A DNA stretch of 64,000 nucleotides from the NCBI GenBank assembly GCA_963701085.1, contig OY969561.1:1-64000 (forward strand), read 5' to 3'. The notes below the pieces were generated by a model. That model was given only the letters and a program-made list of their open reading frames with translations, ran no database searches and was not told the DNA's origin. The stretch is from an uncultured bacterium. Lineage in GTDB: Bacteria > Babelota > Babeliae > Babelales > Vermiphilaceae. The position numbers were made by a program, and so were the translations under genes. This document shows positions 2,928-60,353 of this stretch, piece by piece; the stretch's first letter is position 1; every line of letters begins with the position of its first letter.

Positions 2928-4569
2928 TTAAGAGATTATTTTATCATGAATAAGCATACGTTCAGCAACTGATTCAAACAAGGGTACGGATACTGTTGCG
3001 GCATAAATGTTTTTTTGCTGCGCTTCTTTCACAAAAGTTACAATCACTCGTTGATAATCATCTTTTTCCACAATGCCTGCACAGGAGTAGATATTTTTTT
3101 CTGTATCATATTTGCCATCAATGAGCATGTTTGCGGTACCTGTTTTACTCATGACGCGATATCCCTTTATTGCAGCTCTGCGCGCGGTACCGTAGAGAGT
3201 TGTTTTTTCTAATATTTCTTTGATGGTAGTGAGGGACTTCATCTGAGTAGAGTTGTTTACCCCTTTGTGTAGCCTGCCCTTCGAAGCCTTGGCGAAGTAG
3301 GGGCGTCACCTTGTATCCCGTTGCAATTGTACAAAATGCGCAGGCAAGTTGGAGTAATGTTGCAGAAACTTCATATCCATAAGAAAGTGAAATAATTGGA
3401 TTGTTTTGACCAATTTTCAGGAGGGTTAAGGAACCCTGTATTTTCCCCGGGAATTTAATACCTGTTTTGCTGCCAAATCCTAATTGTTTGTAATGATCAT
3501 ACAATTTTGTATCCAATCGTTTTGCAACAATGGCGATGCCAATATTATTTGATAATGCAATAACATCAGTGAATGGAATGGTGCCATGTGCTTGAACCGT
3601 GTTGATAATGCGTCCATCTATGTGCGTAGTGAGACTATTTTTGCAATCAATCAGTTCATCAGGGGTTACTACATCTTCTTCAAGTGCGGCAAGTGCAGCG
3701 CACACTTTCATCACTGAGCCAAGTTCATGAGCATCGGTGATAATTCTGTTTTTAAAGTTTTCACTGCTTGCAGAGTGAGCATTGTTAGGATCAAAATAGG
3801 GGTAAGAAAGCATTGCAATAATTTCACCGTTCTTTGGGTTCATGATAATCACCGCAGCTTCTTTTGCATTAAACTTTTCTACTGTTTGTTGCACGGCTTC
3901 TTGTACTAAGAATTGTAAATCAGCATCGATCGTTAGTTGGAGTGGGTGACCGATATCACCTTGTACGGTTGTTTCTTTTTTGAAATAGTAGTATCCAGAG
4001 CGTGCATCTTTTTCTAAGTGACACGTAGTTGGTTTTCCTGCAAGGGTGTGATTATACAGTAATTCAACACCGAGCAGTCCCTTGTTATCAATGCTCGTTA
4101 GCCCAATCAGTGGGCTTGCTGCCTTGAGGGGGTAGTAGCGTCCCGGTTCAGAGAGTAGGAAAATATCAGGATTTTTTTCTGCGTTAATTATTTCAATTTC
4201 TTGGGGTGATAATCTCCGCTTGATGAACATAAAATGTTTATCTTTATTCTGTTCAAAACGCTTGATAGTTTGTGGAAAATGCTTTTTCAAAAATTTGAGT
4301 GTGCGTTTTTTATCAGCCATCTGTGTTGGTAAAATGAAGGCAGCGATATAATCTTTGTTCATTGCAAGATAGTTACGGCCTGTTCTATCAAAAATTGGCC
4401 CACGCAGTGGTGTTTGTGTGATAGTTACATGATACTGTTGCTCAGCTAATTTTTTATAGAAATCATGCTGTTTTATTTGAATTACGTATAAATTAATACC
4501 AACTAATGCGTACAGTGTGGTGAAGAAAAAGAAAATGATTGTTGAGCGGAGTCTAAAGCTTTGTATCAT
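2928..4569 (-). CDS. ftsI: Class B penicillin-binding protein (FtsI/PBP3-like), frameshifted near 3242 with a compensated pair near 3400-3450
   Basis: N-terminal TM; RGPIFDR, RYYP and GLLGVE motifs; SVMK (SxxK), SNN (SxN), and KTG in the 2928-3242 fragment; follows an FtsL-like gene. Confidence 0.85.
3270..3305 (-). repeat. Structured palindromic repeat (family A) inside the ftsI coding sequence
   Basis: Minus strand CCCTAC-TTC-GCC-AA-GGC-TTC-GAAGGGCAGGC, translated as PLLRQGFEGQA; nearly the same as the tRNA-flanking copies. Confidence 0.8.
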
Positions 4570-12433: not shown

Positions 12434-13786
12434 ATGCAATTTACTAATACCCTTAGTGGGAAAAAAGAAGAATTTGTGGTGGGCAAGCAACTGAAAATGT
12501 ATGTCTGCGGGGTCACGCCGTATGATGATGCCCATGTTGGACATGGCAGGTGCTACGTTGCTTTTGATCTGTTGTATAGGATGCTTCGTTCTTTTGGTAC
12601 GTCGGTAACGTATTGCAGAAATTTTACTGATATTGATGATAAAACAATGCGCCGTGCGGAAAAAGAGTTTGGAGATCGTTTACGTTTTAACGAGATTGCC
12701 GATCGTTATATTAAAAATTTTCATCATGATATTGGTAAGCTCAACTGTTTGTCGCCGGATGTTGAACCACGCGTAACTGAAAATATTCCGCAGATTATAG
12801 AATTTATAAAAAAGCTTATTGATAAGGGTGATGCGTATCAGGCTGGCAATGACGTTTATTTCCAGATTGAAAAATTCCCAGAATACGGAAAATTATCCAA
12901 GCAAAAAATAGAAGATTTGTATGCGGGAGTTCGTATTGATGTTTGCCAGCAAAAAAAGAACCCGCTTGATTTTGCATTGTGGAAAGGTGAGCCTGAAGGA
13001 GAGTTTTGGTCAAGCCCTTGGGGTTATGGTCGTCCGGGATGGCATATTGAATGTTCAGTGCTTGCGCGCCTTAATTTGGGTGAGCACATTGATATTCATG
13101 GTGGTGGTCTTGATCTGATATTTCCTCATCATGAAAATGAGATTGCGCAATCAGAAAGTTTGTTTGGTGCGCCATTTTCTCGCATGTGGATGCATAACGG
13201 CATGGTGAACAGTAATAAAGAAAAGATGTCGAAATCGCTCGGCAATTTTTTTGTGCTTCGTGATCTTTATAAACATTTTGATCCAATGGTTATTCGTTAT
13301 TATTTTTTGACGCATCATTATCGCATGCCTATTGAATTTTCTTTTGAAGGTCTGACAAGTGCACAAAAAAGCTATGAACGGTTAATCAGGCTTTGTGCCT
13401 TGTCTTCTGACTTGTCCGCCGAAGCTTTACCGTGTCCTCCGAAGCTTTTAGCGAAGGATGGAGCGAAGGAGGGGATAATCGATCGTATGCTTGAATTTTT
13501 GCAAGACGATCTGAACACTCCAGGGTTGCTTGGTGTTATTTTTGAAAATAGTACTGAGATTGCTCAGAATAAGCATGAATTGGCGGCAGTAAAAAATATT
13601 CTTGTTAACGAACTTGGATTAACATTGCAACCGTTACCAGAGCGCACGGTTGAGCTGACGCCGGAAATTGAAGCGTTGATTGATGGGCGTAATAAAGCAC
13701 GCAGGGAAAAAAATTGGACGCGTGCAGATGAGTTACGTGACCAGTTGCAGCAGTTAGGCTTTGATGTGCATGATGGCAAGATTTAG
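12434..13786 (+). CDS. cysS: Cysteine--tRNA ligase
   Basis: YVCGVTPY, HVGH (HIGH), GRPGWHIEC, DIHGGG, FPHHENE, KMSKS. Confidence 0.97.
   Translation: MQFTNTLSGKKEEFVVGKQLKMYVCGVTPYDDAHVGHGRCYVAFDLLYRMLRSFGTSVTYCRNFTDIDDKTMRRAEKEFGDRLRFNEIADRYIKNFHHDIGKLNCLSPDVEPRVTENIPQIIEFIKKLIDKGDAYQAGNDVYFQIEKFPEYGKLSKQKIEDLYAGVRIDVCQQKKNPLDFALWKGEPEGEFWSSPWGYGRPGWHIECSVLARLNLGEHIDIHGGGLDLIFPHHENEIAQSESLFGAPFSRMWMHNGMVNSNKEKMSKSLGNFFVLRDLYKHFDPMVIRYYFLTHHYRMPIEFSFEGLTSAQKSYERLIRLCALSSDLSAEALPCPPKLLAKDGAKEGIIDRMLEFLQDDLNTPGLLGVIFENSTEIAQNKHELAAVKNILVNELGLTLQPLPERTVELTPEIEALIDGRNKARREKNWTRADELRDQLQQLGFDVHDGKI
13397..13474 (+). repeat. Nested family A repeats inserted in frame in cysS
   Basis: GTCCGCCGAAGCTTT[ACCGTGTCCTCCGAAGCTTTTAGCGAAGGATGG]AGCGAAGGAGG: one hairpin unit inside the loop of another; encodes LSSDLSAEALPCPPKLLAKDGAKEG. 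Confidence 0.8.
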
Positions 13787-31063: not shown

Positions 31064-32026
31064 TTATCTTGCAAAAATAGAGTGAAAGTTTTGTTTTATT
31101 TTACCGCTAATTCCTGGATAACGAATTTCATCCAAAAGTGTATGATCTTTTTCTTCTGATACCATTCCAGCTTTTTTAATATCTTCAGCAAATTGATCTA
31201 AGTTGTTTTCATTATAGAGTATGCCAAGACGGAGCTTGGTGGTATCTTTTTGTAGCGCATTAAAGGCATCAACGTTCTCTTCATTGTCATCAATAAAGAT
31301 CATGTCATTGTCAGCACCAAGATTGTTTACTACATAGGTAAAGAACTGGTTTGCTGGTTTTTTGCTTGGTACATGCACAATTGTTGAGGTTTCTTTTAAG
31401 TTGATAGCTTTATGGACCATATTTTTATAGTGTACGGGCGTTGTTGGTTTATCTGCAAAGATTTGTAATTGCGAGATTGCAGTATCTTCACTTTGTGGCT
31501 CGGCTACAAATACTTTATCGACCATGTTGGGAATTTCATTACCTAATGCTTCTATAGAAAGATCATAGAGCATACGATCTTTATTAGTGGCAATAACAAA
31601 ATGATAGCCGTCTTCTTTGAGGTGATGATAAAGGTTGTCAATTGGTTGATTAAGGCAACGAGATTTTCCAATATATTCCACTAATCCTGGAACATATGGG
31701 GCAAGTGTTGGATAGCGTCTACCATAATCAAGAAGTCTTAAAGGAAGATTACCCAATTTACGGGGTTTTTTTTCTGTAGGCCCGCCCTTCGTAGCTTCAG
31801 CGGAGTAGGGTTCGTCAGAAATATCTTTTGTAGACTTTTTGCTTTTGAATAAATTTTCAAGAGGTTGTAAGTAAGCAAGTAAGCCAAGGAAGGATGATTT
31901 TTTTATCAATACATCATCAAAGTCTGTGATGAGAATGGGTTTCTTTTTTGCCACAGGTGTTTCTATTGGCAGCGCTGTGCTGCAAAAGATGCTAGCAAGA
32001 AGAAGTGTGCTATATATTTTTTTCAT
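31064..32026 (-). CDS. Secreted HAD-superfamily hydrolase-like protein (tandem paralogue)
   Basis: DFDDVL, ATNK, KKP, IFIDD; signal peptide. Confidence 0.75.
   Translation of the reverse strand: MKKIYSTLLLASIFCSTALPIETPVAKKKPILITDFDDVLIKKSSFLGLLAYLQPLENLFKSKKSTKDISDEPYSAEATKGGPTEKKPRKLGNLPLRLLDYGRRYPTLAPYVPGLVEYIGKSRCLNQPIDNLYHHLKEDGYHFVIATNKDRMLYDLSIEALGNEIPNMVDKVFVAEPQSEDTAISQLQIFADKPTTPVHYKNMVHKAINLKETSTIVHVPSKKPANQFFTYVVNNLGADNDMIFIDDNEENVDAFNALQKDTTKLRLGILYNENNLDQFAEDIKKAGMVSEEKDHTLLDEIRYPGISGKIKQNFHSIFAR
31778..31810 (-). repeat. Family A repeat in frame within the HAD paralogue
   Basis: Minus strand CCCTAC-TCC-GCT-GA-AGC-TAC-GAAGGGCGGGCC; encodes PYSAEATKGGP. Confidence 0.75.
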
Positions 32027-55678: not shown

Positions 55679-55822
55679 AGTAGGTCCATGTTAAATTATT
55701 TTTTTTGGTTAGTTATACAGGGGACATCCTGATATTTTATCAAGTTTAGCAACAAGCATGAGACGAAGGAAGATTTAGTTTTTTTTCGCAAATATCATGC
55801 GAAGGTGGGAGCTTTATTAATT

Positions 55823-55855
55823 TGTCCGTCTACGTTCTTTGAACTACGTCGGACA
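55823..55855 (+). repeat. Family A repeat
   Basis: TGTCCGTC-TAC-GTTC-TTT-GAAC-TAC-GTCGGACA. Confidence 0.75.
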
Positions 55856-55912
55856 GTCTTCTTTACAAAACTTCAATGTTAATTTTTTTTGCAATATTGA
55901 TTTGTTGGCGTA

Positions 55913-55944
55913 GCCAGACGAAGTTGCGCAGCAACGAAGACTGG
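55913..55944 (-). repeat. Family A repeat fused to the CCA of tRNA-Ser(TGA)
   Basis: Minus strand CCAGTC-TTC-GTTGC-TGC-GCAAC-TTC-GTCTGG. Confidence 0.8.
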
Positions 55945-56033
55945 AGGAGAGAGTGGGATTCGAACCCACGATCCCGATCTCTCGGAATAACGGTTTTCAA
56001 GACCGCCGCATTCGGCCGCTCTGCCATCTCTCC
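55942..56033 (-). tRNA. tRNA-Ser(TGA)
   Basis: GGAGAGATGGCAGAGCGG...CT-TGA-AA, long variable arm, GGTTCGAATCC...CCA. Confidence 0.95.
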
Positions 56034-56059
56034 ATCGATATATGTAAAAGAATTGTTTT

Positions 56060-56163
56060 GCCCTACTTCGCTCTGCGAGCTACGAAGGGTCTTCTTAAGT
56101 TTTCATATGGCCTGCCATACGTCCTTCGACAGGCTCAGGATGAGCGGAAGAAGCGAAGTATGG
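56060..56163. repeat. Inverted pair of family A repeats downstream of tRNA-Arg; a family B unit (56122-56147) is nested in the tRNA-proximal one
   Basis: GCCCTACTTCGCTCTGCGAGCTACGAAGGG + CTTCTTAAGT spacer + GCCATACG[TCCTTCGACAGGCTCAGGATGAGCGG]AAGAAGCGAAGTATGG. Confidence 0.8.
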
Positions 56164-56237
56164 CGCGCCCGGAAGGAGTCGAACCTGCAACCTTCAGATC
56201 CGTAGTCTGACGCTCTATCCAATTGAGCTACGGGCGC
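56161..56237 (-). tRNA. tRNA-Arg(ACG)
   Basis: GCGCCCGTAGCTCAATTGGATAGAGC...CT-ACG-GA...GGTTCGACTCC...GCCA. Confidence 0.96.
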
Positions 56238-56277
56238 ATATATTTCAAAATTTAATCAATCGATTTTTACTTTTTAT

Positions 56278-56364
56278 TGCCCTACGACGCTCTAATGAGC
56301 TTCGAAGGGCATACTTCTTAAGTCTTCTGCTGGCTGCGCCATACGAAGCCTTGGCGAAGTATGG
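56278..56364. repeat. Inverted pair of family A repeats downstream of tRNA-Ser(GCT)
   Basis: TGCCCTACGACGCTCTAATGAGCTTCGAAGGGCA + CTTCTTAAGT spacer + GCCATACGAAGCCTTGGCGAAGTATGG. Confidence 0.8.
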
Positions 56365-56452
56365 TGGAGAGAGAGGGATTCGAACCCTCGTGCCCGATTT
56401 CTCAGACTCTTGCTTAGCAGGCAAGCGCTTTAGGCCGCTCAGCCATCTCTCC
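56362..56452 (-). tRNA. tRNA-Ser(GCT)
   Basis: GGAGAGATGGCTGAGCGG...CT-GCT-AA, long variable arm, GGTTCGAATCC...CCA. Confidence 0.95.
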
Positions 56453-56676
56453 CTCTTTTCCTCCGAATTTTACCGCGTCCTCTGTAGCATTAGCACAAGA
56501 GGATGCAAAAGGAGGATTGGGCTAATATATACAAAAGGATACTGTCATTTACTATTTTTTCAAGTACCATTATGAATCTTTTGTTTAAATATAACATTTT
56601 TTAAACTATTGTATATTAATTTTAAGCTGAGTTAAACTTGATAATAATGCTGAAATTGATCGATTAGGAGGGTAAA

Positions 56677-56964
56677 ATGGCATTTATTTTTGATGTAAAA
56701 GTTTTTCCTAGCTCGCAAAAAAAGGGTTGGGTAATTGATAAAACAGGCAATTTAAAATGTTATCTTAAGAGCCCTGCAGAGCAGGGAAAGGCAAATGATG
56801 AGCTTATTAAAAGTCTTGCAAAAGCGCTTGGTGTTACACAATCTATGATTTCTATTACATCGGGCGCTCAATCGCGTAAGAAACGGATAAAAGTTGATGT
56901 TGATATGACCTTTAATCAACTTTTAGAGTTATTGGGAATTGATTGGCAGATGGATATGTTTTGA
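56677..56964 (+). CDS. DUF167/YggU family protein
   Basis: VKVFP, SPAEQGKANDELIK.LAK.LGV, ISITSGAQSRKK. Confidence 0.9.
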   Translation: MAFIFDVKVFPSSQKKGWVIDKTGNLKCYLKSPAEQGKANDELIKSLAKALGVTQSMISITSGAQSRKKRIKVDVDMTFNQLLELLGIDWQMDMF

Positions 56965-57053
56965 ACCCCATTTCCATTACATTTCAATGGGGACCCCAAT
57001 TGGAGTAAGACGTAAATTGGGGTTAAAAAATGGGGCTAAGTTGATAGGAATGT

Positions 57054-58241
57054 ATGCCGTATTTTAAATGGGTTGGCGTGGATGCTGTTGGTTCTACCAA
57101 AAAGGGTAAGCAAGCGGCATATTCATCACACGAGTTGTCAGAACAACTTTTGGGCCGTGGGGTTGCGTTGTTGCAATGTAAACCCGTGTATACGCCATTA
57201 TTCTTTTGGCCTATCACGAGTAAAATAAAAGGTGATTTGTTTAAACAAAAGGCAAAATTATTGCGTGCAGGGTTATTGTTGCCTCATACATTACAAATTG
57301 CTGCCCAACAATCCCATAATCCTTTTGTATATGATATTCTTTCTGATATAAGTCGTGATATTCAGCAAGGTGTTTCCTTTGCCAAAGCGCTTGAAAAACA
57401 GCATGATCTTTGTGATCCGATTGTTATGGTAATGCTGACTGCGGGGCATGAATCGGGCAACATTGTGAGTGCATTGGAAAATGTAGCACTTTATTTTCAT
57501 AAGCAATATGCATTTAATAAAGCCGTTCGTTCTTCCTTAGCAATGCCATTTCTGACGTTACTCTTTTTTATCGGCATTAGTCTGTTTATTTTTGTTTGTA
57601 TCATTCCACGATTTGCGGATATGTTCAGTTCTTTGCAGCAAGAATTACCAGCTCTGACTCGGTGTATGATTGAGGTGAGTGATTTTATTCGTAGCGCACC
57701 AATGATCTATCTAGTCGGAACGTTAGGGGTATTTGTTGTTGCTGCCTATTATTATGTCCATCATACAGGTAAAAAAGCATGGGATAACCTATTTATTAAG
57801 TTGCCCTTTATTGGCGTGGTAATATGGCAATATCACATGAGTCAGGCATTGCAAGCGTTAGCACTGTTGATTAATAGCGGTGTTACTTTGGTGACGGGGT
57901 TGAATATTGTGAGTGAATCAGTTGGTCATTGTTTAGTTAAATCCCAGCTCGCGGCATTACATGATGATGTTGCGGCAGGGCAGTTATTGAGTAATGCAAT
58001 GGCTGCTTCATCAATTTTTTTACCAGAAATTATTGGGTTGATTCGTATTGGTGAAGAAACAGGAACGCTGGGGCAATCGCTTGAAACTGCGGCGTTGGTC
58101 TATAATGATACATTAGAAGAATCGCTGCGACGATTTATTTTTTTTCTCCAGCCAACCGTTATCATTTTGCTTGGTTTATTAGTAGCAACCCTTATTTTTG
58201 CTGTATACTTACCTATTATGCAGCTTTCTCACGTTTTATAA
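57054..58241 (+). CDS. Type II secretion system F / PilC family inner membrane platform protein
   Basis: Two T2SSF domains (AGHESGN, IGEETGTL), IPRFA, QPTVII..G......A.YLPI. Confidence 0.9.
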   Translation: MPYFKWVGVDAVGSTKKGKQAAYSSHELSEQLLGRGVALLQCKPVYTPLFFWPITSKIKGDLFKQKAKLLRAGLLLPHTLQIAAQQSHNPFVYDILSDISRDIQQGVSFAKALEKQHDLCDPIVMVMLTAGHESGNIVSALENVALYFHKQYAFNKAVRSSLAMPFLTLLFFIGISLFIFVCIIPRFADMFSSLQQELPALTRCMIEVSDFIRSAPMIYLVGTLGVFVVAAYYYVHHTGKKAWDNLFIKLPFIGVVIWQYHMSQALQALALLINSGVTLVTGLNIVSESVGHCLVKSQLAALHDDVAAGQLLSNAMAASSIFLPEIIGLIRIGEETGTLGQSLETAALVYNDTLEESLRRFIFFLQPTVIILLGLLVATLIFAVYLPIMQLSHVL

Positions 58242-58263
58242 GATTTCTTAGGGGGAAATTATT

Positions 58264-60186
58264 GTGATCGTACTATTACTAGCGATTTTTTCTTTTTTTC
58301 AATTTGTTTCAGCAGATCAAGCATTGAGTAATTATGCAGAGCGTGTTCTTGATAGCGCTGTGTACCAGCAGCCTACACCATCTATTATTGGCGAGCGTGA
58401 ATGGAAAGAACTTCAGTTGGATCGTTTGGTGACTACTCTTGATCGTACTACAACATCATTTGGAAGATGGGGGTTGGTTAAATTGCTGCATCCCATTGCC
58501 GATAAAAAGCAACTACAAAAGCGTAAAGAAATTATTACTTTTTTGGTTGATAATCCCGAAAAAATGAATCTTTTTAAGCAACAACTTGAGCGAGTGCATC
58601 GTTTTGAGCAATCATTGTTGACGTATTGGGATGCTCAAGATCAGTTGAACCGCAGTGTTGAGCAGTTTTATTTTTCATCCATTGGGTTGCGTGAACTTAA
58701 TAAAAGCAGTATTGCATTAAATGTTAGCACTGCCTTAGAAGGATTTAATGCAGTAAAAAATCTTTTAAGCGTGCTTGCTATGTGGGGAGTTTCTAAGGAA
58801 TTTCTTTTTTGGTCTGCGGGTATCAAACCAAAATTTAATTTTTGGGAGGGTGTAAAATCAGGATTAATGGATCCTATTATGCGCCATTATCCATGGTTGT
58901 ATCAACTTGAACAGAAGTCACCTGAACAGGAGTCATACACATCAAAAGATTGGGCGCAAGCCACTTCTTGGGGAGATGTTTTTAATATATGGAAAAGTGG
59001 TGTTTCAGATAATAATGAAAAAATTTTTTCTGGGTTTGGTACTATTGGGGGTGCTTTAATGGCGACTGCATCAATGCTTTATTATGATTATCAATGGGTT
59101 AATACGGTTGATTTTATTGCACGACGAATTATTTTTATGAATCGTTCACTTAATCTATTGCAACAACGGGTATCGGATGCTGCTCAGTGTATTGCTGCTA
59201 TCATGGATTTACATAAACTTATTGCATTCCAGAACGCTGAACTGAGCGATTATTTGAATGTGGATGATGAGAGCGATGAGTTAGTAGAAAATTTTGTTAA
59301 AAAATTAGTGCAACAGCGCTTTTTGCAAAAACCGGGTCTTTTGTATTCACGTGGTCATGTGCTGACGATGCATCAAGATATTAAACGAATGAAAAAGTTT
59401 TTAATTCCTTTACTTCATTCAGTTGCACTGCTTGATGCATATTGTTCTATTGCGCAGCTGTATAAAGAGAGTCAAGATGAGTTAGTAGTGTTTAGCTTTC
59501 CAGAGTTTGTCACGTCACCAACACCGTTTATACATTATCATAATGCATGGTTACCGTTATTATCATTTGATGAAGCGATTACCAATGATCTTTCTTTAGG
59601 TGGAGATACACCAGGTAAAATTATTATCACCGGTCCTAGTGGTGGTGGGAAATCAATTATTTTAGAAACATATGCTGTGGCGGCAGTGTTAGCACAATCG
59701 TGGTGTATTATACCGGCACAAAATGCTCGTCAAACGATGTTTGCTCGTATTAGAACGGCTCTTGCATTACAAAAAGAAAAGGGCTTGTCAGATTTTATGA
59801 CAGAGATAAAGACGATGGCAGGATTGCTTAATGATATTCGTAAATCAGATATAGATCATCCTATGCTTGTGTTGATTGATGAGCCGTATAAAACTACTGT
59901 TCCTGATGAATCAGCAAAGCGTATTTATCAGTTTGGGAAAGACATTGCCAGGTATTCGCATGCACTCGTTGGTATTGCAACGCACGTAAAAAAACCAATA
60001 TTGCTTGAACGTGATACGGGCGGCATTTTTGGCAATTACCAGGTGGAAATTAAAGAAAAATCTTTTGGTGTTTTTGAGCGTCTGTTTAAAATCGAAAAAG
60101 GCACAGCTATGTGGTGGTTTGAAGATGAGGACCAACGCAGCAGATTTATTGATTGGATTAGCACAAAAACTGTTGTTTCTAATTGA
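58264..60186 (+). CDS. MutS-related ATPase (domain V only) with a signal-like N-terminus
   Basis: LDRTTTSFGR, LDAYCSIA, IITGPSGGGKS, VLAQS, S.FMTE, LIDEP, IATH; GTG start after GGGGG RBS. Confidence 0.8.
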   Translation: MIVLLLAIFSFFQFVSADQALSNYAERVLDSAVYQQPTPSIIGEREWKELQLDRLVTTLDRTTTSFGRWGLVKLLHPIADKKQLQKRKEIITFLVDNPEKMNLFKQQLERVHRFEQSLLTYWDAQDQLNRSVEQFYFSSIGLRELNKSSIALNVSTALEGFNAVKNLLSVLAMWGVSKEFLFWSAGIKPKFNFWEGVKSGLMDPIMRHYPWLYQLEQKSPEQESYTSKDWAQATSWGDVFNIWKSGVSDNNEKIFSGFGTIGGALMATASMLYYDYQWVNTVDFIARRIIFMNRSLNLLQQRVSDAAQCIAAIMDLHKLIAFQNAELSDYLNVDDESDELVENFVKKLVQQRFLQKPGLLYSRGHVLTMHQDIKRMKKFLIPLLHSVALLDAYCSIAQLYKESQDELVVFSFPEFVTSPTPFIHYHNAWLPLLSFDEAITNDLSLGGDTPGKIIITGPSGGGKSIILETYAVAAVLAQSWCIIPAQNARQTMFARIRTALALQKEKGLSDFMTEIKTMAGLLNDIRKSDIDHPMLVLIDEPYKTTVPDESAKRIYQFGKDIARYSHALVGIATHVKKPILLERDTGGIFGNYQVEIKEKSFGVFERLFKIEKGTAMWWFEDEDQRSRFIDWISTKTVVSN

Positions 60187-60236
60187 CGGTTATAGCTCTT
60201 TGGGGTATTCTAATAATACGTTTGAAATAAATAAAT

Positions 60237-60322
60237 GCCGGGGTGGCGAAATGGCAGACGCACGAGACTCAAAATCTCGCGATGGTAACATCATGTCGGT
60301 TCGAGTCCGACCCTCGGCACCA
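60237..60322 (+). tRNA. tRNA-Leu(CAA)
   Basis: GCCGGGGTGGCGAAATGGCAGACGC...CT-CAA-AA...GGTTCGAGTCC...ACCA; TTGACG-17nt-TATTCT promoter upstream. Confidence 0.96.
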
Positions 60323-60353
60323 TACTACGCCAAGGCTACGTATGGCGTGGCCA
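60320..60353 (+). repeat. Family A repeat fused to the CCA of tRNA-Leu
   Basis: CCATAC-TAC-GCC-AA-GGC-TAC-GTATGGCGTGGCC. Confidence 0.85.

Follow-up and report, generated by a model that had tools for sequence, protein, structure and literature searches.

Here we describe a family of GC-rich hairpins fused to the CCA ends of all four transfer RNA (tRNA) genes in a stretch of 64,000 nucleotides (nt) from an uncultured bacterium (hereafter referred to as the window), the opening 64 kb of a genome assembled as one contig of 1,198,634 bp with 37% G+C (G000, completeness 92.6%). The hairpins are probably the terminal modules of small selfish elements that encode a GIY-YIG nuclease and lie 3' of CCA-ended RNA genes, most copies being remnants that lack an open reading frame (ORF) and resemble REPINs or miniature inverted-repeat transposable elements (MITEs). 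The hosts of these elements are tRNA genes, transfer-messenger RNA (tmRNA) genes and possibly other CCA-ended RNA genes. A complete element would comprise the RNA gene with its CCA, a first hairpin unit starting on that CCA or just past it (U1), a spacer, a second, inverted unit (U2) and a gene for an 80-residue GIY-YIG protein on the strand of the tRNA, sometimes with a further unit after the nuclease gene.

The four tRNA genes of the window are called concordantly by ARAGORN and Rfam, and from each of them a U1 hairpin runs gaplessly, with the encoded CCA as its first three bases. U1 is built of a 6-bp outer stem (CCA-NNC paired to GNN-TGG), a symmetric 3x3 internal loop with T-N-C on each arm, a centre made of a short GC-led inner stem and a small loop, and a 3' tail of the pattern C-N(2-4)-GCCA. 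U2, of opposite polarity, lies 20–60 nt beyond U1 at the three tRNAs of the minus strand. The window copies are three U1–U2 doublets and one solo U1, all of them without a nuclease gene. At tRNA-Ser(GCT) (56362–56452, minus strand; Rfam tRNA, 64.6 bits), the CCA at 56362–56364 opens a U1 of the form CCATAC-TTC-GCCAAGGC-TTC-GTATGG (56339–56364, minus strand; recovered by regular expression and, at 41.4 bits, by the covariance model R1 introduced below), which reads CCATAC-TTC-GCC-aa-GGC-TTC-GTATGG when spelled out. Its tail, CGCAGCCA, extends down to 56331 on the same strand. The U2 facing it (56278–56311, plus strand; inverted repeat I1) has the stem CCCTAC/GAAGGG with an A·A mismatch, and the two units together form a REPIN-like doublet. 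At tRNA-Arg(ACG) (56161–56237, minus strand), U1 (56115–56163, minus strand) retains the outer stem CCATAC/GTATGG, and its interior is replaced; R1 scores 18.0 bits across the insert, a 27-nt nested element CCGCTCATCCTGAGCCTGTCGAAGGAC at 56121–56147 (minus strand) that was recognised from the sequence, k-mer counts and the flanks of the type-1 nuclease genes discussed below. The tail CAGGCCA occupies 56108–56114 (minus strand), and the facing U2, GCCCTAC-TTC-GCTCTGCGAGC-TAC-GAAGGGT, lies at 56060–56090 (plus strand; regular expression).

At tRNA-Ser(TGA) (55942–56033, minus strand), U1 is CCAGTC-TTC-GTTGCtgcGCAAC-TTC-GTCTGG (55914–55944, minus strand; regular expression, R1 19.4 bits), spelled out CCAGTC-TTC-GTTGC-tgc-GCAAC-TTC-GTCTGG, with one T·T mismatch in the outer stem and a tail, CTACGCCA, down to 55906 (minus strand). 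Its U2, TGTCCGTC-TAC-GTTCtttGAAC-TAC-GTCGGACA (55823–55855, plus strand; inverted repeats I4 and I7), is adjoined by a segment, 55854–55864, that is complementary to the 5' arm of the Ser-TGA U1. The solo unit belongs to tRNA-Leu(CAA) (60237–60322, plus strand) and reads CCATAC-TAC-GCCAAGGC-TAC-GTATGG (60320–60345, plus strand; regular expression, R1 38.1 bits), with the tail CGTGGCCA up to 60353 (plus strand). The spacer CTTCTTAAGT is present twice, at 56091–56100 and 56314–56323. An initial annotation of the window, made from its letters, had reported CCA-started hairpins at all four tRNAs, an Arg unit interrupted by a nested element, and an inverted second unit at three tRNAs with one spacer used twice; each of these could be verified directly from the sequence and its inverted repeats.

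The same address is used throughout the genome, where CCA is encoded by all 35 tRNA genes. By reading, 21–23 of the 35 carry a unit (a simple U1 in 14, an interrupted U1 in 7 and a variant in 2), as does the tmRNA gene, placed by Rfam at 885563–885932 (minus strand), whose CCA likewise opens a U1. Under a strict script test, 16 of the 36 tRNA and tmRNA CCA ends pass, compared with 305 of 33,753 other CCA sites (0.9%), which gives both the enrichment at tRNA ends and the occupied fraction that the initial annotation had left to be counted. The 12 tRNA genes without a unit are mostly followed directly by another tRNA, a ribosomal RNA (rRNA) or an ORF. Copies end in ...GCCA and so recreate a CCA, and at tRNA-Phe and tRNA-Arg(CCT) new units follow that recreated CCA. 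A 'permuted tmRNA' called by ARAGORN at 884986–885655 (670 nt, with an implausible tag peptide) was rejected in favour of the standard one-piece tmRNA found by Rfam; ARAGORN was probably misled by the repeat after the tmRNA CCA.

The covariance model R1 was built from nine tRNA-linked copies (alignment A2) and has 92 matches in this genome at E≤10. For covariation we used 113 R1 matches from 96 sources, amounting to 72 distinct rows, in an alignment that was fitted to R1 itself and therefore leans towards structure. Standard pairs fill 96.9% of the cells in these rows versus 78.6% after shuffling, and pairing in slid control alignments is 25–49%. All six outer-stem pairs show changes on both sides, and the covariation score of 0.42 (0.10 when shuffled) was attained by none of 500 shuffles, upholding the stem covariation that had been claimed from the window copies. 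The 3x3 loop, described at that stage as fixed, is nearly constant but not strictly so: per arm, 58 distinct copies out of 72 have TTC, 10 have TAC and 4 have another triplet. The 574 cells include 552 Watson–Crick pairs, 4 G·T and 6 A·C, and thus show no strand bias. Entire subfamilies carry one fixed mismatch (for example, CCCTAC/GAAGGG), as expected of copies made from a master sequence. Together, the near absence of G·T pairs and the fixed mismatches point to a palindrome copied and selected as DNA, which would fit these features better than an RNA fold. The initial annotation had supposed an ssDNA or RNA structure recognised by a protein; of the two nucleic acids, the scarcity of G·T pairs favours DNA.

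Beyond the RNA genes, roughly 70 further unit copies are dispersed in the genome. The CCA register is confined to copies at RNA genes; in dispersed copies the stem is TCCTCC, CCCTAC or the like, and units are also nested in other repeats and arranged in tandem arrays. Dispersed copies in the window, recovered by regular expression and R1, lie at 3277–3302 (outer stem CCCTAC/GAAGGG, no tRNA), 13436–13461 and 31785–31810, all on the minus strand. In two relatives an ORF-less doublet occurs as a tandem duplicate of 139–145 nt with 97–99% identity (L235:1180–1470 in G007 and L234:47–349 in G002), from which it follows that doublets also amplify locally. In sequencing runs, at most 0.30 of the sampled words of window positions 55700–56700 were present per run, and at most 0.07 in RNA runs. 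With Rfam 15 at gathering score, the window, 5 genome loci and 18 cross-phylum loci yielded nothing beyond tRNA, tmRNA, rRNA and RNase P, and the hairpin itself matches no Rfam family there. Searches of open-access literature turned up no account of either the hairpin or a small, tRNA-linked GIY-YIG element.

The unit is found in register on the CCA ends of tRNA and tmRNA genes in many phyla. Exact matching of the pattern CTTCGC-N(1-2)-AAR-GCTTCG-NN-TGGC in a collection with a single genome for each species gave at least 120 stretches, 80 of which were taken as loci, against a rough chance expectation of about 17 matches over the whole collection. Among the matches listed (86 in the 80 loci), 43 start precisely at the CCA of an ARAGORN-called tRNA or tmRNA, and several further ones resemble tRNA ends that ARAGORN overlooked. 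These listed matches come from Verrucomicrobiota, Patescibacteria, Nitrospira, Planctomycetota, Acidobacteriota, Bacteroidota, Armatimonadota, Bacillota and Dependentiae/Babeliales, and also from Alpha-, Gamma- and Deltaproteobacteria. Six of the cross-phylum tmRNAs were confirmed by Rfam, again with no family over the hairpin.

Within one genus, the hairpin is dispensable and polymorphic. Of 40 relatives compared, 29 have R1 matches at E≤0.01, and in the relatives' loci that were fetched (L021–L050) the majority of hairpins sit on a tRNA or tmRNA CCA end. By contrast, G001, a genome of the same genus that is 95% complete, has no R1 match, and all 33 of its distinct readable tRNAs have plain AT-rich 3' flanks, with an apparent decayed remnant at Ser-GCT. 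At tRNA-Thr(TGT), a U1–spacer–U2 doublet of about 113 nt is present in this genome and the site is empty in both G009 and G001, with clean alignment on either side; this is the comparison of filled and empty sites that the initial annotation had pointed to. Two terminator-like sites were found between 55600 and 60500 of the window, neither at a unit, in which the units differ from intrinsic terminators.

These comparisons bear on a host function for the hairpin, namely a signal for processing, protection or termination at tRNA 3' ends that sequesters CCA in the precursor and is retained for its benefit to tRNA maturation, with the GIY-YIG protein perhaps as its dedicated RNA or DNA endonuclease. 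Such a role would agree with a hairpin in CCA register at most tRNAs and at tmRNA, with its lack where a tRNA is closely trailed by another tRNA or a gene, with T-runs 7–8 nt past the stem at some copies elsewhere in the genome, and with an association that extends across an order and across phyla. It would also agree with the case of a prokaryotic Slx1-like GIY-YIG domain fused to a TrmH-like tRNA methyltransferase, for which a 2006 survey suggested a role in RNA metabolism (PMC1564403). However, a signal of this kind sits poorly with its lack at all 33 tRNAs examined in a congeneric genome, with orthologous tRNAs that vary in presence and absence, with window units that coincide with no terminator-like site, with almost purely Watson–Crick pairing without the G·U pairs usual in RNA, and with the dispersed, nested and fixed-mismatch copies. 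We therefore judge a host function quite improbable as an account of the family. Because G001 lacks the hairpin, because Thr(TGT) is polymorphic and because no terminator lies at the units, the hairpin is unlikely to be essential for tRNA processing or termination, and the 3'-processing signal that the initial annotation had offered as one of two options is not supported as a necessity.

The second of those options, a non-autonomous mobile element at tRNA 3' ends, gains support from the repeat family itself, its polymorphism, its nesting and tandem arrays, and a linked nuclease gene. That gene emerged when exact complements of the 5' arm were sought at distances of 1–3 kb: nearly all complements were instead within 100 nt, with an exception at 507 nt in an Armatimonadota locus (L129). 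Downstream of a tmRNA, this locus has a small ORF for a stand-alone GIY-YIG domain, enclosed by two inverted units. This genome has five small GIY-YIG genes, one of type 2 and four of type 1. The type-2 gene encodes 80 amino acids and lies outside the window at genome positions 843858–844097 (minus strand), about 150 nt downstream of the CCA of tRNA-Glu and on the tRNA strand; by eye, the sequence shows a U1 and a facing unit ahead of it, and an inverted unit also follows the ORF. The initial annotation was correct that no mobiliser is encoded in the window, and the GIY-YIG genes that it had named as candidates beside RAYTs proved to be present near the repeat at tRNA-Glu, in relatives and in other phyla.

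The arrangement recurs in relatives, in other phyla and in metagenomes. The type-2 protein is found in 23 of the 40 relatives. In 18 of 30 relatives' loci the gene sits 120–320 nt downstream of a same-strand tRNA or tmRNA, mostly with U1 on the CCA and, in about half, with an inverted unit 30–80 nt before the start codon. In another 10 it follows a CCA-type U1 with no recognised RNA gene, and an opposite-strand tRNA occurs near the gene in none of the 30. Among the 80 cross-phylum loci listed, 19 have the gene on the same strand as the unit and 90–350 nt downstream of it. A metagenome search started from the protein, using no DNA pattern, gave 80 loci, of which 12 with less than 200 nt upstream were uninformative. 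At 43 of the remaining 68, a tRNA or tmRNA lies on the strand of the gene no more than 500 nt upstream, representing 21 tRNA species; U1 lies exactly on the CCA in 22 of these 43, and the 21 unmatched by the U1 pattern mostly have a variant hairpin starting on or just after the CCA, at least one (L274) being without such a hairpin. A further 11 of the 68 have U1 only and 14 have neither; an opposite-strand tRNA is seen at one locus.

It could be argued that repeats and GIY-YIG genes are merely co-residents, each accumulating separately in a haven downstream of tRNAs, the repeats spreading by gene conversion, slippage or another enzyme. Repeats without the gene in 7 of the 40 relatives, gene copies within one genome that are old by their DNA identity (72–75%), and tandem doublets at 97–99% identity, indicating local amplification without an enzyme, speak for separate histories. 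We hold this explanation to be unlikely, given that order and strand (tRNA, U1, U2, ORF) are fixed in the 18 relatives' loci, the 19 listed cross-phylum loci and the 43 metagenome loci described above. Repeat and gene co-occur in 22 relatives, and neither is found in 10 (7 have the repeat only and 1 the gene only; these kin are not independent). Moreover, a second, unrelated repeat family surrounds all four type-1 GIY-YIG genes.

The type-2 protein matches the Pfam GIY-YIG family (PF01541) over residues 1–72 with E = 1.6e-15 and 57.6 bits (cut-off 22.6). No NCBIfam model matches it; weak matches to TIGR01453 and T5orf172 came from the type-1 and L129 queries. The database label is 'GIY-YIG nuclease family protein', and the closest named homologues are from Dependentiae/Babeliales. 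Its nearest solved structures are the SLX1 structure-specific endonucleases (7wme, 2.6e-6; 4xlg) and the UPF0213 protein BH0048 (1zg2). All 36 aligned homologues, from several phyla, are exactly 80 residues long and align without gaps. Y5, Y17, G19, H31 and E63 are invariant among them and R27 is present in at least 90%, which covers the catalytic Tyr, Tyr, His, Glu and Arg. Beyond the catalytic domain, the 80 residues leave no C-terminal DNA-binding module. In a tree of 40 type-2 proteins, tRNA identity takes 24 changes versus 25.6 when shuffled, with 38 of 200 shuffles as low, and the Arg-ACG and Arg-TCT copies pair with approximate likelihood-ratio support (SH-aLRT) of 99. Site-specific nuclease lineages were rejected, as the nucleases do not group in this tree according to the tRNA that they follow. 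Since close nucleases sit at different tRNAs, the address is generic, a CCA-ended RNA gene rather than one tRNA sequence. The prokaryotic Slx1-like proteins were considered mainly vertically inherited in the 2006 survey, the relevant parts of which mention no link to tRNAs or repeats (PMC1564403).

Nuclease activity and mobility of the element are both inferred from sequence, and the following scheme is proposed on that basis. As an 80-residue domain is too small to read a long site, DNA structure is proposed as the source of specificity. The units would extrude as hairpins or as a cruciform that the nuclease recognises, and the enzyme would cut at the two C-TNC-G motifs, the conserved C-T(T/A)C-G on each arm fitting CNNNG. 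Cleavage by the GIY-YIG domain of I-TevI depends on a 5'-CNNNG-3' motif, with a preference for A/T-rich triplets (PMC4065259). The break would initiate copying of the element, which through recombination or repair would reach new CCA ends; the TGG of the 3' arm may pair with the target CCA and so help its selection. The constant orientation behind the tRNA suggests that the gene may be expressed by read-through from the tRNA promoter, and the units on either side of the ORF suggest that ORF-less doublets could arise by deletion between flanking units. Nine type-2 matches in relatives contain in-frame stops, as expected of decaying selfish genes.

Several observations weigh against a selfish GIY-YIG element of this design. 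The pair closing the internal loop is T-A and not C-G in 7 of the 72 distinct copies, and in the His and Lys-CTT copies of this genome, which have the closing T-A, neither arm reads CNNNG. There is no target-site duplication between filled and empty sites; the ...GCCA tail can be read as a 3-nt CCA repeat, yet it is part of the family consensus. The right boundary of the element is undefined, G000 and G001 losing downstream synteny at tRNA-Glu. Neither a tRNA nor U1 is found at 14 of the 68 informative metagenome loci, and in one subfamily the hairpin begins after the CCA instead of on it, so pairing with CCA is not universal. The nuclease gene was absent, at E≤1e-8, from the plasmid and phage collections searched. 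A recent transposition of a complete element was not observed, and the divergence of gene copies within one genome and the relatives with only one partner (seven with the repeat, and G012 with the gene and no R1 match) count on the same side. Nevertheless, as stated at the outset, elements of this kind probably account for the family. The broader proposition is a pan-bacterial class of mobile elements in which an 80-residue nuclease made up of its catalytic domain works with structured DNA ends, and the hairpin, in place of a protein domain, chooses the target through CNNNG cut sites and TGG–CCA pairing, at any CCA-ended RNA gene. We put this forward tentatively, as an idea with somewhat less than even prospects. 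There is a fair chance that the element class is previously unrecognised and deserves the name of a new class of mobile elements.

The genome also contains what looks like a second GIY-YIG-plus-repeat system. A second repeat family, more abundant than the unit, has twelve-mer counts of 92 (CGCTCGCCCTGA), 65 (CGCTCGTCCTGA) and 42 (CGCTCATCCTGA), and the four type-1 GIY-YIG genes (about 95–103 residues, 'MQNHFYVYILKC...') are all flanked by its inverted copies. These genes and their repeats lie at genome positions 231.4–232.0, 339.0–339.7, 1091.2–1091.7 and 1102.8–1103.3 kb. The 27-nt insert in the Arg-ACG unit belongs to this family. With all four type-1 genes flanked by an unrelated repeat, repeat-plus-GIY-YIG looks like a recurring design. 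A third repeat family is seen in the window at 56966–57035 as a hairpin pair, CCCCATT-TCC-ATTACA-TTC-AATGGGG and CCCAATT-...-AATTGGG ('GGGGTCCCC' type); it has dozens of genome copies, often adjoining the other repeats.

Individual loci show further features. Directly downstream of the U1–U2 composite of tRNA-Ser(GGA) lies the gene for the signal recognition particle (SRP) RNA (607766–607858, minus strand), and the composite occupies the entire spacer between the two RNA genes (genome 607766–608057). At genome positions 327380–327461, approximately (L237:480–562), a conserved sequence of about 85 nt with the motif CGTCTGAAT ... GNNGCCA ends in CCA and is followed by a U1, as at tRNAs. In the loci of seven relatives (L213, L214, L219, L231, L233, L234 and L235) the type-2 GIY-YIG gene comes next. 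Rfam gives nothing for this sequence at E≤1, and it lacks a consensus fold; the genome has its RNase P and SRP RNA genes elsewhere, and 6S RNA was not found in it. It could be an unrecognised CCA-ended RNA gene. At L070:4815–4900, a GC-rich locus from Akkermansiaceae, the last codons of the nuclease, ...GCCTTTGCCAAAAAACGCCTCTGG TAG, abut the 3' half of a U1 (GCTTCGGCTGGCAAGCC...) that belongs to a second, decayed tandem element, and the coding sequence of the C-terminal 'AFAKKRLW' resembles the 5' half of U1; this resemblance may be a chance of codon usage or a recombination joint.

If the proposed element is real, it accounts for unannotated GC-rich hairpins on tRNA and tmRNA 3' ends in genomes ranging from reduced, Dependentiae-like ones to those of Verrucomicrobiota and Nitrospira. 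Long open frames span these repeats and could give rise to false gene calls. Before the tRNA can be charged, a stable hairpin with C74 as its first base must also be removed. For a very small nuclease, the element would supply both a candidate substrate, namely a hairpin or cruciform that contains a pair of CNNNG bubbles, and an address (CCA ends), and an 80-residue nuclease with specificity for DNA structure would make an interesting minimal system. Part of the large orphan bacterial UPF0213/Slx1-like family would thereby gain a biological role, and CCA ends tagged by the element would offer a route to unrecognised tRNA-like RNA genes.

Compared with known systems, the family resembles REPIN–RAYT in its high-copy, short, GC-rich imperfect palindromes, in its inverted doublets and persistent non-autonomous copies, and in having one or a few small nuclease-type genes flanked by matching units. 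It differs in that the linked gene encodes a GIY-YIG (Slx1-like) protein and not an HUH Y1 enzyme, in that the element keeps strictly to one address, the CCA with which tRNA and tmRNA genes end, and in that the unit sequence is common to several phyla, whereas repetitive extragenic palindromes (REPs) differ between species. Ordinary REPs or REPINs moved by a RAYT, or a transposon of the IS200/IS605 type inserting 3' of CCA, would produce short imperfect palindromes in inverted doublets and tandem arrays, and ...GCCA ends that recreate the target and are followed by new units, as at Phe and Arg-CCT, would suit them too. However, the Y1_Tnp/RAYT family (PF01797) has no match at E≤1 in G000, at its 92.6% completeness; without a Y1 enzyme, membership in REPIN–RAYT fails, and the Y1 TnpA of IS200/IS605 is equally missing. 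REP superfamilies are reported to carry a conserved GTAG or CGTC tetranucleotide at one end of the palindrome (PMC3733652). The units start with CCA or NCC, the TTC loop of 58 of the 72 distinct units reads CGAAG and not GTAG on the other strand, and GTAG or CGTC tags were not seen, although no scan was aimed at them. An origin from ordinary REPs or from IS200/IS605 is therefore highly improbable.

With free-standing GIY-YIG homing endonucleases (the phage T4 Seg proteins, I-TevI) the element shares a GIY-YIG catalytic domain and a gene whose presence varies at a conserved site, and T4 SegB is itself located in a tRNA gene cluster. Here, however, the gene encodes an 80-residue catalytic domain alone, without their specificity-giving DNA-binding domain, and it is chromosomal, not found in the phage collection, and accompanied by structured repeats with many ORF-less copies. 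SLX1 cuts branched and stem-loop DNA, so a hairpin substrate suits the type-2 protein, whose best sequence matches among solved structures are SLX1 and UPF0213 proteins of similarly minimal domain; eukaryotic SLX1 proteins differ in having a RING domain and an SLX4 partner. The CNNNG motif found on each arm of the unit is a further likeness to I-TevI, whose domain needs such a motif for cleavage (PMC4065259). As in MITEs, the ends are common to a gene-bearing partner, U1 and U2 preceding the GIY-YIG ORF at tRNA-Glu and in relatives, but no target-site duplication separates filled from empty sites. Finally, the element resembles the tRNA-targeting tyrosine-integrase islands and Ty3/TRE elements in using tRNA or tmRNA genes as a safe address while leaving the RNA gene intact. 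Unlike those islands, it has no integrase and no duplicated tRNA 3' segment, and in contrast to tRNA-targeting elements of kilobase length it measures 0.03–0.6 kb and occupies many tRNAs within one 1.2-Mb genome.

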